Source: Bacilli bacterium (GTDB lineage: Bacteria; Bacillota_I; Bacilli_A; RFN20; CAG-826). Taken from it: a stretch of 64,000 nucleotides of DNA. A program made the position numbers and the translations under genes. Positions 1,148 to 17,113 of the stretch are shown here, piece by piece; the stretch's first letter is position 1; the number at the start of each line of letters is the position of its first letter. Below the pieces are notes generated by a model that was not told the DNA's origin, did not search any database, and was given only the letters and a program-made list of their open reading frames with translations. Location: NCBI GenBank assembly GCA_022641095.1, contig JALCDB010000001.1:311859-375858 (forward strand). The letters are read 5' to 3'.

Positions 1148-2122
1148 ATGAGCCCTGAGGAAAAGCAAAGCGCGATTGATTTGATCATCAGCTCACTTCG
1201 CGGGAAATCGGGGATGAACTATCAGAAAGGCGCCGACATCATCCTTGGGGAATACTATCGGTCGCAAGGCCTGACGTTCGAAGTCCCTGACCCTTTAGGC
1301 GGGGACCACAAAAACGACGGCTGGGTGGTCGAGTCCGGAACGTTCTTCCAGGTTTACTCCCCACGCGAGGTCAAATCGTCCTTCGCCTCGGAGACGAGAA
1401 AAAAATTCGACGACGATTTCGGAGGGCTTTGCGACCTTGTCCTGTCCAAGGGGCAATGGGGCGGGGCAATCAACAAGTTCTACATGATCGTCAACACCCG
1501 CGACGGCTCCCTTCCGCCGGATTACGACCGGCATTACGAATCGGCCAAAAAAGCCGAGCTAGAAGCCCATCAGGGGAAAGCCATAGGCGACGTCAAAGTC
1601 GTAAACGACAATTTTTTAAAAGACATTCTCCTCGAATGCGGGGACAGCGCCCTTGAGGCCACGCTGACCAAGCTTGACCTTTACGGGTGCCTCGCCGCCG
1701 AAAAGATAAGCAGCGCGGACATAGTCCGCTTCGTCGGGCGCGTCTCGGCGAAAATCTCCGACGGTTTCCTCCAAGGCCCCGCACCCGCTCCCGACTTCAC
1801 GCGAGTCCCGCCAGACAAAAAACTGGACATCAACAAATTGGGGGGCTACCAGGCACGGTTCGACCAAATCTATCCGTACATCGGCGCGGTGGACAAGGCG
1901 AACGAGGAATGCAACGAAGACATCGCCAGCGCCAGCGGCTTCCAAAGGACAAAGGACTTCGTAATCGCCTCCTACAGAAAGAATTCGGCGGCCATGAGCG
2001 GCATCGATCTCTACCAAAAGGTCAGAGACGACCTTACGGGCCTCTATCCTACGGGAAAGACGGCGGCCGAGATGGTCGTCGCGTACGTTTTCGACAAATG
2101 CGATATTTTCAAGAAAGAGTGA
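1148..2122 (+). CDS. ABC-three-component (Lamassu-like, LmuA-type) effector: N-terminal restriction-endonuclease-like domain plus C-terminal domain
   Basis: GGDHKNDG...FQVYSP motif; C-terminal YVFDKCDIF; first gene of a 3-gene operon ending in an SMC-like ATPase. Confidence 0.75.
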   Translation: MSPEEKQSAIDLIISSLRGKSGMNYQKGADIILGEYYRSQGLTFEVPDPLGGDHKNDGWVVESGTFFQVYSPREVKSSFASETRKKFDDDFGGLCDLVLSKGQWGGAINKFYMIVNTRDGSLPPDYDRHYESAKKAELEAHQGKAIGDVKVVNDNFLKDILLECGDSALEATLTKLDLYGCLAAEKISSADIVRFVGRVSAKISDGFLQGPAPAPDFTRVPPDKKLDINKLGGYQARFDQIYPYIGAVDKANEECNEDIASASGFQRTKDFVIASYRKNSAAMSGIDLYQKVRDDLTGLYPTGKTAAEMVVAYVFDKCDIFKKE

Positions 2123-2132
2123 CAAAAGCAAA

Positions 2133-2396
2133 ATGATTCTACCAGACAAATACACAACCAATCAGGACAGCCTCATCGGCGCGTCGGCGATCGTCCTCTC
2201 CTGCCTCGGAAGGCAGCGGGTGCCGGTCGAAGACGCCTGGGGCAGGTGCAAGAGAGAATCGGGCCGACTGAACGTCCGCCTGCCCTTCACGAAATTCATA
2301 CAGACGATCTGCTTCATGTTCGCCTGCGGGATGATCCAATGCGAGAAAGGAGGGCTTATCTTCAATGAAAATCTTGTCACTGACGATAAAAGATGA
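2133..2396 (+). CDS. ABC-three-component middle component (LmuC-like)
   Basis: 87 aa, MILPDKY...SLIGASAIVL..L...W...F...L..G.I pattern; lies between effector and ATPase and overlaps the latter by 32 bp. Confidence 0.75.
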   Translation: MILPDKYTTNQDSLIGASAIVLSCLGRQRVPVEDAWGRCKRESGRLNVRLPFTKFIQTICFMFACGMIQCEKGGLIFNENLVTDDKR

Positions 2397-4032
2397 CCTC
2401 CGCCGCGAGGTGAGGAGTGTCGCCTTTAAACCGTCGGGCGCCTCGTTCGTGTTCGGCGACGTCCAAGACCCCGCGGCCTCGCGCAAAACGTCCAACAGCC
2501 TCGGGAAAACCCTTCTTTTTAGCTTGGTCGACTCCGTCTACGGAGCAAAGGGCAACAGGGAGACCTCCAAGAAAGCGCTGGCAGGCTTCTCGATTTCGTC
2601 AGTAATAGAAGCCAAAGGCGCGAAGCACACCGTCGAGAAAACGCTCGGCACCCCAAGCAAAATAAGCCTGGACGGGAGGGCCATGAATCTGGAAAGCTAC
2701 AAGGAGTATCTCGGGATTGACCGAGGCATCTCGTCGAAATTCATCCACCTCAGCAACCGGCCGAGCGTCTGGAGCGACCGCTCCACCCCCTCCTGGAGCG
2801 ACTATGCGGCGATCCTCAGAATCCTGGGCCTCGGGAGGATGCCCGACCTCGTGAAAACGATCTACCTCGAGCAGGACAAGCTGAAGCTTTCGTCCTCGCA
2901 ATGCCGGCAGGCCATGGAAGACGCCGAATCCACGCCGAATAAATTCGAGGAGGACCGCTTCCTCAACGACAAGGCCATAGAATCCCTCGAAAAGGAAATA
3001 AGCAAGACAACCGCCGATGCGAAAAACCTGAAGATATCCAAGGAAAGCGCCGACGTCCAGGCCGAGTTCGAATCCCTGAACGAGAAGTTGAGGGAAAAGC
3101 AGGGAGAGATATCCCGCCTTGCGCAGCAAAAAGCAAAGCTCAGCTCCTACGTGGAGGGTGTCGCCTCCTCGAAAATGACGCCGGCCGACATCGAGAGGAT
3201 CTACAAAGAGGCGAACATCGAGCTCCCCGGGCTCGTGAAGAAGAGAATCGAGGACGTCGACGCTTTCTTCGCAAGCGTGGTCGCCGACAGAAGGTGGTCG
3301 ATCGAGAAGCGCATCGAGGAGATCGACGCCGACACGCTCAGGCTGAGCGGAGAGGCCAAGGCGATAGGCGCGAAGCTCGACTCCTGCGGGAAGGTCCTCT
3401 CCACGAACGAGGCCTACCAGACCGCGATGGAGATCCTCGGCAAAGCCAGCGCCGAACTTCAGGACGCGAAATTCAAAAAAGGGCAGTTCCAAAGCATCGT
3501 TAGTCTTCAGTCGAAGGCCGAGACCCTCGAAAGATCCGTGAAGGCGAACCTGGCGGCGCTGTCCGAGGAAAAGGGCCGCTACGAAGGAAAAATAGACGAA
3601 TACCGCAACTGGGTGTTCGAGAAAATAAGCAAGGTGTACGAGAACAAAGTCCGCGGGACCTTCGTGATCCAGATCGCCGGCGAGCGGGCTATAAAGAGAT
3701 CGAGGCCCATCTCCATGGACATGACGATGACGAGGGACGCCGGAGAGGGAATCAGCGCCGCGAAAAGGCTCATCTTCGACTATCTGCTTTTTCACGCGTC
3801 CAGCGACTTCGAAATGTGCGTCGAGGATTCGTCCTGCTTCAACGGGATAGACCCCAGGCAGGTGGACTCGCTGGCCCTCATGGCCGACGAGATTGCCTCG
3901 TCCGAAGGCAAGCAGGCCTTCATCGGCCTTAACAAATACCAGCTCCTTAGCGGCGAGACGATCGCCAAGATAAAAGGCGAGAGCGTGCTCGTCCTTTCCG
4001 AGGACGACCTTCTCCTCAGGCGAGAGTTCTGA
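2365..4032 (+). CDS. SMC/Rad50-like ABC ATPase (LmuB-like, DUF2326-type C-terminus)
   Basis: Walker A NSLGKT, long central coiled coil, AGEG signature, VEDSS..FNGIDPRQ Walker B/D-loop. Confidence 0.8.
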   Translation: MKILSLTIKDDLRREVRSVAFKPSGASFVFGDVQDPAASRKTSNSLGKTLLFSLVDSVYGAKGNRETSKKALAGFSISSVIEAKGAKHTVEKTLGTPSKISLDGRAMNLESYKEYLGIDRGISSKFIHLSNRPSVWSDRSTPSWSDYAAILRILGLGRMPDLVKTIYLEQDKLKLSSSQCRQAMEDAESTPNKFEEDRFLNDKAIESLEKEISKTTADAKNLKISKESADVQAEFESLNEKLREKQGEISRLAQQKAKLSSYVEGVASSKMTPADIERIYKEANIELPGLVKKRIEDVDAFFASVVADRRWSIEKRIEEIDADTLRLSGEAKAIGAKLDSCGKVLSTNEAYQTAMEILGKASAELQDAKFKKGQFQSIVSLQSKAETLERSVKANLAALSEEKGRYEGKIDEYRNWVFEKISKVYENKVRGTFVIQIAGERAIKRSRPISMDMTMTRDAGEGISAAKRLIFDYLLFHASSDFEMCVEDSSCFNGIDPRQVDSLALMADEIASSEGKQAFIGLNKYQLLSGETIAKIKGESVLVLSEDDLLLRREF

Positions 4033-14170: not shown

Positions 14171-14894
14171 TCGTTAGCCCTCCAAAGCGGCGATCGCGTC
14201 TTTGATATTCCTTTAAGCAGGCGACAAAGGCGTCTCGCTTGAAATCCGGCCATCTGACTCCGGTGAACACGAATTCGCTGTAAGCGCATTGGTAAAGCAT
14301 GTAATTGCTGATCCGTTCCTCGCCCGAGGTACGAATCAGCAAATCGACGTCAGGGAGATCCGGGACCCAAAAGAAATCGCGAAAACTCTTTTCGTCAAGG
14401 GAAGCGGGATCGAGTTGGTTTTCCTTGGCGAGCCGCGCGGCTTGGCGAGCCGCCCGGACGATCTCGTCGCGCCCACCGTAATTGAGACACACGTTGATGA
14501 CCCATTTTTTGTTGTTTTTCGTCCGCTCGATGGATTCGTAGCATACTCCCCTCGTCTTCTCGCGGATCCTCGTCAGGTCGCCCGAAACCACGATGCGGGT
14601 CCCGACCGAATCGAGATAATCGATTTCCTTCTTGAAGAAAAGCTCAAGGTAATCCATGAGATGGTCGATCTCTTCCTGCGGACGATTCCAATTTTCGGTC
14701 GAAAAAGCGAAGAACGACATATATTTGATACGAAATTCGCGGCAAACCTCAAAAAGCTCGATGATGCGGTTGCAGGCTTCTTTGTGCCCGAGGTAACGCG
14801 GCAATCCGCGCGAGGTGGCCCAACGGCCGTTCCCATCCATGATGAAAGCCACGTGGTCAAGTTTTTTGCTCAAAACGAATGGCTCTTTTTCCAT
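14163..14894 (-). CDS. uppS: cis-prenyl (undecaprenyl) diphosphate synthase
   Basis: HVAFIMDGNGRW, FSTENW, NYGGR, IRTSGEERISNY. Confidence 0.97.
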   Translation of the reverse strand: MEKEPFVLSKKLDHVAFIMDGNGRWATSRGLPRYLGHKEACNRIIELFEVCREFRIKYMSFFAFSTENWNRPQEEIDHLMDYLELFFKKEIDYLDSVGTRIVVSGDLTRIREKTRGVCYESIERTKNNKKWVINVCLNYGGRDEIVRAARQAARLAKENQLDPASLDEKSFRDFFWVPDLPDVDLLIRTSGEERISNYMLYQCAYSEFVFTGVRWPDFKRDAFVACLKEYQRRDRRFGGLTNE

Positions 14895-15035
14895 GCGGCT
14901 GAAATTATATCATGCGCGCCCATGGGCATGAAGGAGATGGCGCTCTTTTTCTCGCTTTGCCATCGAAAAGGGATGAAACATAGTGGCTTCGTCCCGAAGC
15001 GTCGACGAATCGCGCCCGAAAGAAGGAAAGGCTTC

Positions 15036-16487
15036 TCAGACCTCGGCCACGTAACCCACGAAAAGGGGGATGCCGAACCTGTCCTTGATGTAAAAGAGGA
15101 AGGGCGAATCGAGATCGACGACGTAGGTGTTATCCTCCTCAACCGGGGCGGCGGCGGCTCCTCCCAAGGAGAAGGTGACGCTTTTGGCGGTCGTGCCGTC
15201 CTCATCCATTGAGATCTCGTTTTTCTGATAGGTCTCCTCCAAATAGGCCGGAGCTCCATCAGGATAATCGGCGAAAGCTCCCGCCAAGGCGCTTGAAGAG
15301 GGGTCGTAGAGATCGCCTAGCCCCAATGAGGAGAGGGCCTCGTCGAACCGCAGTTTGCTCGACAGGGAGAATTTCGGCACCGTTAGATCGACGTATAAGG
15401 TGGAAGCCAGATTCTCCTCCGGCAAGGCGAAGATATCCTTCCCCGAGATAAGGGGCAATATATCGTCTCCGCTATCGCGAGGAGTCAGATAGACGATGTC
15501 AAGGCCATCGTTATACTGGTCGTCCACCGCCACGTAATCGCCGAACTCGTAGACGAGCCCGCCGTAAAGATGGTTCATGAAATCGATTTTTTGGGACTCG
15601 CCGCTCGCCGAGACGAACAGCCCCTCTTTCGTCTCGGCGGTCGAATAGCCGTTTCTCCAGGTTCCTTTGAAGCAGAAAGTCGAAAGAAGATAGAGAAGCG
15701 GATTCTCGCATTCCAGGTCCTCCGGGGAAACGAACCCATCCTCATCAACGCGCTCATTGGCCCACTTCGAAATCTCCGCGAAGGCTTTTTCGTTCGTGAA
15801 ATCGACCCCATAGGCTTCCGCATACATCGCGGTCAAAGCGTTCACGTAATCCCGGTTCGGCTCGTAGGCAGAACTGAGGAATGCGCCGTTATACATCTGA
15901 AGGTTGCCGTCCCCCTTGACGAAGTAGTCGTTCTCATAAGCCTCTCTGAACTTGGAGGCCCGTGAAGCGGCGTTGCCTCCCAAAAGGGAGTCGAATCCCG
16001 ACTGGTCCCCCACGGAAGCCGAAGAGGCCATCATGAGGTTGCCATAAAGGGAAAAAGGGGCGAAAGCGAAATTGCTCCCTCCGACGTCAAAAGCCCCGAA
16101 AACCGAATCCGTGAATTTCTGAACATCATCGACGAAGGTTGCCTCAATTTGGTTTTGCCCACCTGACAGCGAGGGGTATTCGACGGAATTCAGAGCCTTG
16201 AAGTAATCCTCCTTGAGAGCCGTTCCGACGTTTTGGGCGTAAACCCGCTTCTCCCGATGGAGCGATTCCTCCGTTCTAAGACCCATGGCCAAAACCGAAG
16301 ATATGGCGACCACGACGACGAGGCCGAAAGCGATTGCGATTCCCCACGCCGTCCAGCCAATGATCCCCTTGACGTTGACGTAGCGCCTCTCGTTGCTTGG
16401 GAGCGTCTCGACCGGAAACCGTTCCGGAACGGGCGAAAACGCTCGCAAATCGGCTTCGAAGGCCTTTCGTAAATCCGCTTTTTTCAT
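15036..16487 (-). CDS. Membrane-anchored serpin-domain protein (candidate anti-sigma factor)
   Basis: One TM helix at aa ~42-68, then serpin motifs: APFSL, FKGTW, PKF, hinge EDGTTAKSVT, DSPFLFYI...PLFVGYV. Confidence 0.85.
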   Translation of the reverse strand: MKKADLRKAFEADLRAFSPVPERFPVETLPSNERRYVNVKGIIGWTAWGIAIAFGLVVVVAISSVLAMGLRTEESLHREKRVYAQNVGTALKEDYFKALNSVEYPSLSGGQNQIEATFVDDVQKFTDSVFGAFDVGGSNFAFAPFSLYGNLMMASSASVGDQSGFDSLLGGNAASRASKFREAYENDYFVKGDGNLQMYNGAFLSSAYEPNRDYVNALTAMYAEAYGVDFTNEKAFAEISKWANERVDEDGFVSPEDLECENPLLYLLSTFCFKGTWRNGYSTAETKEGLFVSASGESQKIDFMNHLYGGLVYEFGDYVAVDDQYNDGLDIVYLTPRDSGDDILPLISGKDIFALPEENLASTLYVDLTVPKFSLSSKLRFDEALSSLGLGDLYDPSSSALAGAFADYPDGAPAYLEETYQKNEISMDEDGTTAKSVTFSLGGAAAAPVEEDNTYVVDLDSPFLFYIKDRFGIPLFVGYVAEV

Positions 16488-17002
16488 AAATCTCCTTTCT
16501 CGTAATGGGCCCTGATTTTGTCAAGAGCCCGCTTGTACTTCGACGAAACGGCGTTCACGCTGACGCCTTTGCCTTTCGCGATCTCGCGGAATTTAAAGCC
16601 GTAAAGGAAGCGATAGACCAGCAAATCGAGTTCCTCCCCGCTAAGGAAGGAGGAAAAACGTTCCAGATACTCCCCGAACGATTTGGTTTCCTCCTTCTGG
16701 ACACCAATCGCCTCTTCATATGGGACGAAGGATTCATGACGAAGGAAGTTGAGGGCAAGGTTCCGGCTCGTTTTCACGAGGTAATACTTGACCTTTTTGC
16801 CTTTCGTCAGTTTGTAGCGGCTCTCATAGAAGTTCGCGAAGGTTTGATTCGTTATGTCTTGGCTCGATGCCTCCTCATGGGTATAGGAAAAGGCTACGTA
16901 ATAAACGAGCAAGGAATACTCCTTGTATATCTCGTTGAAAGCCCCTTCCATCGTCGCTCGATCGAGCGACTTGAGGCGCGTGAGGGTATGATCGTGAATC
17001 AT
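16484..17002 (-). CDS. ECF (group 4) RNA polymerase sigma factor
   Basis: Region 2 (DITNQTF...YLVKTSRNLALNFLR) and region 4 (FKFREIA...VNAVSSKYKRALDKIR); 172 aa; ATGA overlap with the serpin gene. Confidence 0.9.
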   Translation of the reverse strand: MIHDHTLTRLKSLDRATMEGAFNEIYKEYSLLVYYVAFSYTHEEASSQDITNQTFANFYESRYKLTKGKKVKYYLVKTSRNLALNFLRHESFVPYEEAIGVQKEETKSFGEYLERFSSFLSGEELDLLVYRFLYGFKFREIAKGKGVSVNAVSSKYKRALDKIRAHYEKGDL

Positions 17003-17068
17003 GGCTTCGGTCGAGGTCTTTGCCTCAGTAAATAATACACGAGATGGTTCGTTTTTCGTCGGTCGAAA

Positions 17069-17096
17069 GAAAAAGGCGAAGCCAAAGCTTCGCCAT
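17069..17096 (-). terminator. Terminator after frr
   Basis: GGCGAAGC-ttt-GGCTTCGCC hairpin with a T run on the minus strand. Confidence 0.75.
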
Positions 17097-17113
17097 AAAA
17101 CGAGAAAGACGGG

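Follow-up and report, generated by a model that had tools for sequence, protein, structure and literature searches.

A serpin-domain protein coupled to an ECF sigma factor in gut and rumen Bacilli, a candidate protease-sensing anti-sigma factor

Serpins are textbook suicide inhibitors, and anti-sigma factors are known to borrow sensor domains. In the RsgI/SigI systems of cellulolytic clostridia, a short sigma-binding part and one membrane span are joined to a borrowed extracellular domain that recognises an external macromolecule. In Bacillus subtilis and Clostridioides difficile, RsiV, the partner of sigma-V, is described in excerpts of three papers as a lysozyme-receptor anti-sigma factor (PMC4183432, PMC5014341, PMC6066255), and in the excerpt of the last of these the binding of the ligand frees a protective juxtamembrane helix for signal peptidase (PMC6066255). 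Tengpin, a serpin of Thermoanaerobacter tengcongensis (2pee, 2pef, 2vh4), inhibits leukocyte elastase with a stoichiometry of 2.1, and its N-terminal tail, which is needed for the native state, is replaced by strand s1A after the stressed-to-relaxed change (excerpt of PMC1905895). Bifidobacterium breve has a protease-inducible, autoregulated serpin operon under a two-component system (excerpt of PMC8012564), while miropin, the Bifidobacterium longum serpin and the siropins are extracytoplasmic gut or oral serpins that act against elastase-like and other serine proteases (excerpt of PMC8233489). Here we describe a two-gene unit in a 64,000-nt stretch of DNA from a Bacilli bacterium (assembly GCA_022641095.1, contig JALCDB010000001.1, positions 311,859 to 375,858; the whole stretch is called the window), in which the gene for an extracytoplasmic function (ECF) sigma factor is coupled to the gene for a membrane protein with a serpin domain.

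We consider it quite likely that this serpin protein, 483 amino acids (aa) long, acts as the anti-sigma factor of the coupled sigma factor. The sigma/anti-sigma assignment is well supported by the pairing of the two genes in 32 of 32 assessable loci, the predicted binding of the two proteins, a charge bias that fits an N-in orientation, an ECF-type promoter and the presence of an M50 protease gene. A sequence-only reading of the window had described the architecture on which this rests: the open reading frames (ORFs) and the sequence confirmed a 172-aa ECF sigma gene that overlaps the 483-aa gene by ATGA, and hydropathy and Pfam confirmed an N-terminus of about 40 charged residues followed by one hydrophobic span and a complete serpin domain.

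Pairing of the sigma and serpin genes

A serpin match was found in 17 of 61 related genomes. Each full-length match in these 17 that had an N-terminus of 37-57 aa and a single hydrophobic span was directly preceded by a sigma-like ORF. One genome per species was then scanned, which gave 39 loci; in 32 of them the sigma ORF lay directly upstream of the serpin gene, with gaps of -20 to +37 nt. The other seven were four loci cut by contig ends (L032, L050, L055 and L062) and three serpins without the long N-terminus (L030, L063 and L064). L063 and L064 are distant serpins from other phyla and have no sigma gene; L012, L014, L016 and L017, distant serpins with signal or lipoprotein peptides, have none either. 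In L030 (2424-3770, plus strand) just nine residues precede the span (residues 10-28), there is no sigma gene in the 2.4 kb upstream, and the gene looks like a natural 'tail-less, sigma-less' form. Thus, a sigma gene accompanied all 32 assessable long-N-terminus loci versus 0 of 7 serpins without that N-terminus, and the linkage of homologues to ECF genes, which had been set beforehand as a test of the sequence-only reading, was seen in these 32 loci.

A scan with a sigma hidden Markov model (HMM) gave no weaker sigma match in L030, L032, L063 or L064. Because this HMM was partly trained on the same genomes as were scanned, Pfam was used as an independent check, and it matched Sigma70_r2 to all of 33 distinct upstream ORFs and Serpin to all 33 of their partners. 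These 33 distinct aligned pairs, which are the homologues counted below, comprise the species-representative loci and relatives from the first search of 61 genomes. Their flanking genes vary from locus to locus, and in one genome (G009) the pair lies on a different contig than frr-uppS, the genes on its two sides in the window. The pairwise identities of the sigma factors correlate with those of the serpins (r 0.87 over 528 pairs, and 0.60 for pairs below 60% identity). The conserved pairing, the differing flanks and the correlated divergence together indicate a mobile, co-inherited two-gene module. In most loci the two genes overlap by 4 nt, which fits a joint production of both proteins.

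By database label, the module occurs in uncultured Bacilli ('Mollicutes', Erysipelotrichaceae-like, Candidatus Scatoplasma), most of which came from human gut, rumen and faeces. When 1.84 billion cluster representatives were searched with a profile, 39,873 serpin matches were obtained at E <=0.001. Among 153 proteins examined, 90 had a span that starts at residue 30 or later, at least one of these calls (P0153) being false, 46 had a signal- or lipoprotein-like start and 17 had no span. P0022, P0058 and others resemble L030 in having a span, the juxtamembrane motif and a serpin domain, with the span preceded by just ~5-10 residues. The profile matches also included proteins of 700-1150 aa that contain two or three serpin stretches and are apparently tandem serpins (P0087, P0102, P0107, P0119, P0124 and others). 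On a 2.2-kb contig (L060, 508-2038, plus strand), a sigma gene is followed by a serpin gene in two ORFs of 273 and 229 aa, a split that may reflect a frameshift, a pseudogene or an error of assembly.

The sigma factor, its predicted partner tail and the promoter

The sigma factor consists of regions 2 and 4 only (Pfam Sigma70_r2 at residues 25-91, E 2e-9, and Sigma70_r4 at residues 120-165). It scored 58.7 bits against the NCBIfam model TIGR02937 (sigma70-ECF; cut-off 42.9), and no specific ECF subfamily model in NCBIfam reached its cut-off with this protein. The true start of the sigma factor is uncertain by a few codons: upstream of the ATG in the window (17003-17030, minus strand) the only GAGG is at a distance of about 20 nt, in most orthologous loci the start is preceded at 5-8 nt by GGAGG or AAGGG, and in a 90%-identical relative (L026) the sigma factor was called four codons longer.

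Residues 1-40 of the serpin protein are charged, and residues 41-70 form a continuous hydrophobic stretch between K40 and R71, with the Kyte-Doolittle maximum at residues 50-68 (2.74). The tail begins with a conserved amphipathic motif, M-x-K-[LFW]-K-K-x-x-K, and was modelled as a helix at residues 3-17. Averaged over the 33 homologues, the 15 residues before the span contain 3.8 Lys and Arg and 0.4 Asp and Glu, and the 15 residues after it contain 2.9 and 1.7, respectively. This bias fits an N-in orientation, in which the tail would be cytoplasmic and the serpin domain extracytoplasmic. A zinc anti-sigma domain (ASD, zf-HC2, H-x3-C-x2-C) was rejected as an assignment for the tail, as residues 1-40 contain neither Cys nor His and no Pfam match was obtained; by this feature the serpin protein falls outside the class I and zinc anti-sigma families. 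An ordinary cleaved signal peptide was rejected as the sole reading of the N-terminus, given that a conserved, charged segment of 37-57 aa precedes the span in all 33 homologues. A regulated cleavage of the hydrophobic span by signal peptidase is possible, and it would be compatible with an anti-sigma role because RsiV is cleaved in that way (excerpt of PMC6066255). Behind the span, residues 71-90 of the linker were modelled with low confidence, and a confident placement begins at about residue 91 (pLDDT 83-92 for residues 91-120). The residues F96, N100 and Y104, the last followed by Pro, are nearly invariant, and this juxtamembrane motif is also kept in lipoprotein-type relatives.

The complex prediction that the sequence-only reading had suggested, between the sigma factor and the serpin protein's N-terminus, was built from alignments of the 33 sigma-serpin pairs, and it predicted an interaction. 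With residues 1-48 of the serpin protein, the median ipSAE, a measure of the model's own confidence, was 0.80 (runs 0.68, 0.82 and 0.80), versus 0.00 for the best of three controls. In the calibration, 58 of 80 solved complexes and 2 of 110 mismatched pairs attained the score mark. The partner had a pLDDT of 71 or more, and the runs had at least 84% of their contacts in common. In the models, tail residues 1-34 contact residues 11-59 (region 2) and 111-168 (region 4) of the sigma factor, and this geometry is the sandwich that is typical of anti-sigma factors. The prediction as a whole gives in silico support to the binding.

Upstream of the sigma gene, the window and its nearer relatives carry the promoter CGACGAAAA-N13-TGTATTATT, and another subclade carries CGAACGTTTT-N13-[TC]GT.T.AT, which corresponds to GAAC-N17-CGT, the usual ECF promoter pattern. 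The window variant has TGT, not CGT, at the -10 element. A strict form of the pattern (CGA[AC]..., a 13-nt spacer and [TC]GT.T.AT) was present in 19 of the 33 upstream regions, and several of the remaining regions showed the motif by eye with one deviation or had a miscalled start. This conserved ECF-type promoter is a candidate target of the module's own sigma factor, and autoregulation is predicted. The operon site was the only exact match in the window genome (1.59 Mb, 89% complete). Relaxed scans of this genome gave 2 and 1 matches versus 3-6 and 1-10 in shuffled sequence, and thus no target beyond the operon; four approximate matches with 2-3 mismatches, one of them upstream of an ORF (C1:218321, spacing 12), were not counted. 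This leaves the operon itself as the one detectable target, perhaps together with uppS-cdsA-dxr-M50 by read-through past a weak hairpin, and the predicted circuit would therefore be a self-inducing loop that yields the serpin.

The layout of the sigma-serpin pair recurs in the other ECF units of the window genome, in which a sigma gene is followed by the gene for a one-span protein. Besides the sigma gene of the pair, this genome has three ECF-like sigma genes, each followed by a gene for another protein, in L023 (1384-3193, plus strand), L025 (534-1731, minus strand) and L022. The partner proteins in L023 and L025 have about 45 cytoplasmic residues and one span, and the N-terminus of the L023 partner is Lys-rich, helix-like and somewhat like that of the serpin protein.

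The serpin domain, a proposed signal path and its rivals

The Pfam Serpin profile matched residues 135-481 over profile positions 16-368 of 370 (E 2e-36). The closest solved sequence relative was tengpin (2pee, E 1.4e-18), with ~21% identity in the fold alignment. The AlphaFold2 (AF2) model had a mean pLDDT of 80, with residues 440-452 of the reactive-centre loop below 50, and its Foldseek matches were serpins (E ~1e-27, target-normalised TM-score up to 0.85). One solved sequence match, PDB 9hbk_C, a 413-aa 'superinfection exclusion protein', covered the C-terminal half of the serpin (query residues 253-480, E 8e-9), which suggests a serpin-like protein with a superinfection-exclusion role.

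Inhibitory serpins follow a hinge rule, with Glu at P17, Gly at P15, Thr or Ser at P14 and small residues at P12-P9, which allows fast loop insertion. Among the 33 homologues, P17 was Glu in 29, P15 was Gly in 32, P14 was Thr or Ser in 29, P10 was Ser, Thr or Ala in all 33 and P8 was Thr, Ser or Ala in 31. The inward-facing hinge positions are small or beta-branched and uncharged. W277, which we take to be the 'breach' Trp, is invariant in the alignment. The centre of the loop consists of 24% Ala, 16% Gly and 13% Ser, and about 22 of the 33 loops contain, by eye, a motif that resembles Ala-Ala-Pro-X (A-A-A-A-P-V in the window), the classic recognition pattern in substrates of elastase, chymotrypsin and subtilisin. 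If P1 is placed by a count of 17 residues on from the hinge Glu, it would be an Ala, whereas by the alignment with conserpin-AATRCL the Pro would be P2 and the next residue, Val in the window, P1.

A candidate site-2 protease gene, of the kind on which control of anti-sigma factors such as RseA, RsiW and RsiV by intramembrane proteolysis depends, is present as well, as PF02163 had a single match in the window genome, in an M50 gene three genes downstream of the serpin gene (E 2.2e-39). The Pfam match of this protein is spread over residues 10-469, which suggests that the protease domain contains a large insert that may be PDZ-like.

A signal path that would join these elements can be proposed. 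At rest, the first ~35 residues of the serpin protein would be sandwiched between regions 2 and 4 of its translationally coupled partner, the sigma factor, and keep this partner off RNA polymerase. An extracellular serine protease would then attack the exposed, Ala-rich loop at its Ala-Ala-Pro-X-like site, and the loop would insert into sheet A in the stressed-to-relaxed change. As in tengpin, insertion would displace a segment at the N-terminal side, here the conserved juxtamembrane segment, from the serpin body and open it to a site-1 cut. The M50 protease would be the one to cut the membrane span next and so release the sigma factor, and the free sigma factor would act on its own ECF-type promoter to give more sigma factor and more serpin. 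In effect, a suicide inhibitor would be supplied on demand, and one protein would serve as both sensor and resistance determinant. Attack on the reactive loop by a protease is a candidate trigger that rests on the conservation of hinge and loop and on the analogy with tengpin, and we see about equal grounds for and against it. We would give the same even chance to the mechanism taken as a whole, that is, an N-in single-pass anti-sigma factor with a tengpin-like serpin sensor and a self-inducing loop.

Several observations weigh against this proposal, and those that concern the anti-sigma role itself are as follows. The N-terminal side of the span is the more positive one in only 25 of the 33 homologues, and the bias is moderate in the window protein. 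No Pfam anti-sigma domain was matched in any of the 33 serpin partners, the window protein included, and its tail is just 40 aa long. The ipSAE of the complex, being the model's own confidence, may partly reflect a memory of solved sigma/anti-sigma complexes. Unrelated surface proteins of the lineage (e.g. in L065 and L069) likewise have a long tail and one span, so that this topology alone is not diagnostic. The anchors of these surface proteins, the lack of a known anti-sigma Pfam domain in the tail and the record of bacterial serpins as inhibitors that are secreted or anchored would all suit a membrane-anchored inhibitor that does no more than share a transcript with the ECF sigma factor and belong to its targets, with the N-terminus as a signal anchor and the sigma factor controlled in another way. 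We regard this as distinctly unlikely, given that no other candidate anti-sigma gene was conserved beside the pair in the neighbourhoods of the related loci, that the tail carries its conserved motif at the extreme N-terminus and is predicted to bind both sigma domains while the controls scored 0.00, that the tail-less variant L030 also lacks the sigma gene, and that the 4-nt overlap fits joint production.

Other observations weigh against the loop as the trigger. At the hinge, 19 of the 33 homologues have Val or Ile at P12, 25 have Lys or Arg at P11 and 32 have Ile, Val or Leu at P9, and the family loop is 6 residues longer than that of conserpin-AATRCL, which has an alpha-1-antitrypsin-type loop; together, these features make inhibitory competence uncertain. 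From what is known of loop length, the longer loop may make for better baits than tight inhibitors; by our own count, the tengpin loop is also longer. The AF2 model, which is not evidence of the cellular state, draws hinge residues 431-439 as a strand next to residues 420-428, and the top Foldseek matches were cleaved or latent serpins (2vdy, 5cdz and 2pef), with native tengpin at rank 29, so the model may be of a loop-inserted form. No alignment was obtained between the juxtamembrane motif and the tengpin tail, and the HMMER profile match to 2pee begins at profile position 112. Homology between the juxtamembrane clamp and the tengpin tail was dropped as an explanation when the HMMER alignment failed to join the two, and the likeness is thus an analogy of position only. 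The protein could also be an anti-sigma factor that responds to a signal other than loop cutting, such as envelope or folding stress, a timer set by spontaneous latency, or a non-protease ligand. All the evidence for the anti-sigma role applies equally to this explanation, which is also favoured by the loop-inserted look of the AF2 model and its best fold matches, by the atypical P12, P11 and P9, and by tengpin, which without its N-terminal tail folds past the native state to the latent form (excerpt of PMC1905895). It is nevertheless unlikely in our view: an Ala/Gly/Ser-rich loop centre with an Ala-Ala-Pro-X-like motif in ~22 of 33 homologues looks selected as a protease site, and P15 Gly, P14 Thr and the presumed breach Trp are kept as in loop-inserting serpins. 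A generic protease sensor is a further form of anti-sigma factor to be weighed, in which any clip of the linker or degradation of the ectodomain would start intramembrane proteolysis and the loop would only protect locally. Site-2 proteases generally need only a shortened ectodomain, and the low-confidence linker residues 71-90 could be directly accessible. The structured juxtamembrane motif (residues 91-115, pLDDT 83-92) and the conserved hinge would be unneeded in such a sensor, however, and why the partner is always a serpin would stay unexplained, which makes a generic sensor very unlikely.

Locus layout and relation to described systems

The gene string on the minus strand of the window runs tsf, pyrH, frr, the 172-aa sigma gene, the 483-aa serpin gene, uppS, cdsA, dxr and the 572-aa M50 gene (Table 1). 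At the ATGA junction, the start codon ATG of the serpin gene (16487-16485) overlaps the stop codon TGA of the sigma gene (16486-16484), and the Shine-Dalgarno sequence of the serpin gene, AAAGGAG, sits within the 3' end of the sigma gene. The sequence-only reading had placed the pair behind the frr terminator with uppS under its own extended -10, as the terminator scan and the sequence also indicate, and the terminator is predicted to shield the pair from transcription that arrives from upstream. Because the extended -10 of uppS has no -35 hexamer, it is missing from the list of the promoter scan. As this -10 ends 9 nt before the ATG and no Shine-Dalgarno sequence is visible (14894-14912), a transcript from there would be leaderless or nearly so.

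Table 1. Features of the sigma-serpin locus, in positions of the window
Feature	Position	Strand	Basis and details
Intrinsic terminator of frr	17075..17094	-	8-bp stem with 6 G-C pairs, 4-nt loop, T-rich tail
ECF-type operon promoter, CGACGAAAA-N13-TGTATTATT	17031..17061	-	Sequence scan
ECF (group 4) sigma factor gene, 172 aa	16484..17002	-	ORF, Pfam and NCBIfam
Serpin gene, 483 aa	15036..16487	-	ORF and Pfam
Predicted cytoplasmic tail of serpin protein, aa 1-40	16368..16487	-	Charged; N-terminal amphipathic helix at aa 3-17
Single hydrophobic membrane span, aa 41-70	16278..16367	-	Hydropathy
Juxtamembrane linker, aa 71-115, motif F96..N100..Y104-P	16143..16277	-	Alignment and model
Predicted extracytoplasmic serpin domain (aa 116-483) and stop codon	15036..16142	-	Pfam, fold matches
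Reactive-centre loop region, aa 429-461	15105..15203	-	Hinge E-D-G-T-T-A-K-S-V-T, then G-G-A-A-A-A-P-V
Weak hairpin past the serpin stop, possibly a partial terminator	14986..15000	-	6-bp stem, poor T tail
Extended -10 of uppS, TGATATAAT	14904..14912	-	Read from the sequence; 9 nt before the uppS ATG
Candidate M50 (RseP/RasP-type) site-2 protease gene, 572 aa	10234..11952	-	In the string uppS-cdsA-dxr-M50

The pair had also been described as an insertion into a conserved frr-uppS junction. Its position between frr and uppS stands, but the junction is not a uniformly conserved one. In two of five same-genus genomes examined, frr and uppS follow each other directly, with a gap of ~10-15 nt, and in the other three (L065, L069 and L068, gap at about 2047-3107) they are separated by ~1 kb; with the sigma-serpin pair in the window (14895-17113), this makes the junction a variable spot in the genus. 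The gene between frr and uppS in L065 (2092-3054) and L069 (2070-2981) lies on the opposite strand (minus in both) and encodes a surface protein, leucine-rich by eye, with a tail and one span.

In the excerpts of the literature covered by our search, no link was found between serpins and anti-sigma or ECF factors, no bacterial serpin was presented as a receptor, and reviews of bacterial serpins were silent on sigma factors. The main text of the ECF re-classification paper contains 0 occurrences of 'serpin'; its supplementary tables, which lay outside the search, might list serpin neighbours. Within the literature searched, a serpin-domain anti-sigma factor would be previously undescribed.

If the loop is the trigger, the module would represent a new sensing principle, with a protease as the ligand and an irreversible fold change as the response. 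It would explain how gut and rumen Bacilli with reduced genomes match the supply of inhibitor to the protease load, which would be useful because each inhibitor molecule is consumed when it is used. The module, with a sigma factor, a serpin anti-sigma factor and one promoter, would be compact and portable and might serve as a protease biosensor, and a role would be assigned to a sizeable set of proteins now named 'hypothetical protein' or 'serine protease inhibitor'. The broadest form of the proposal is one that we advance tentatively, at slightly less than even chances: a serpin that works as a transmembrane receptor, in which an attacking protease would cause the bait loop to insert irreversibly, displace a juxtamembrane clamp and lead through intramembrane proteolysis to sigma release, so that the 'protease-activated receptor' would be the induced inhibitor itself, in at least ~88 clusters (50% identity) of gut and rumen Bacilli.

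The modular build of the serpin protein is like that of RsgI. The sensors of RsgI are carbohydrate-binding or glycoside-hydrolase-like, and its N-terminal domain is a Pfam family, whereas the tail of the serpin protein matches none. The resemblance to RsiV/sigma-V, as excerpts of three papers describe it, would lie in an ECF sigma factor co-transcribed with a single-pass anti-sigma factor that has a short cytoplasmic N-terminus (PMC4183432, PMC5014341, PMC6066255). The proposal also parallels RsiV in an ectodomain that would bind the very host enzyme defended against, a juxtamembrane guard of site 1, a site-2 protease and autoregulation, again as far as these excerpts go. Unlike in RsiV, the sensor is a serpin and not the RsiV fold, the signal would be a covalent attack or cleavage with a stressed-to-relaxed switch in place of reversible binding, and the only detectable output is the sensor-inhibitor itself rather than separate resistance genes. 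Tengpin shares an N-terminal extension before the serpin domain, which in tengpin holds the native state, and in contrast to the window protein it is not described in the excerpt with a sigma partner or as a regulator (PMC1905895). Nor are miropin, the B. longum serpin and the siropins, in the portions of the serpin reviews covered (including PMC8233489), described with sigma coupling or a cytoplasmic tail like that of the window protein. The B. breve operon is alike in belonging to a gut bacterium, in a rise of serpin on protease exposure and in an autoregulated circuit, both of which are proposed here. B. breve senses through a separate histidine kinase and response regulator, whereas in the sigma-serpin pair the role of receptor would fall to the serpin, connected to an ECF sigma factor.

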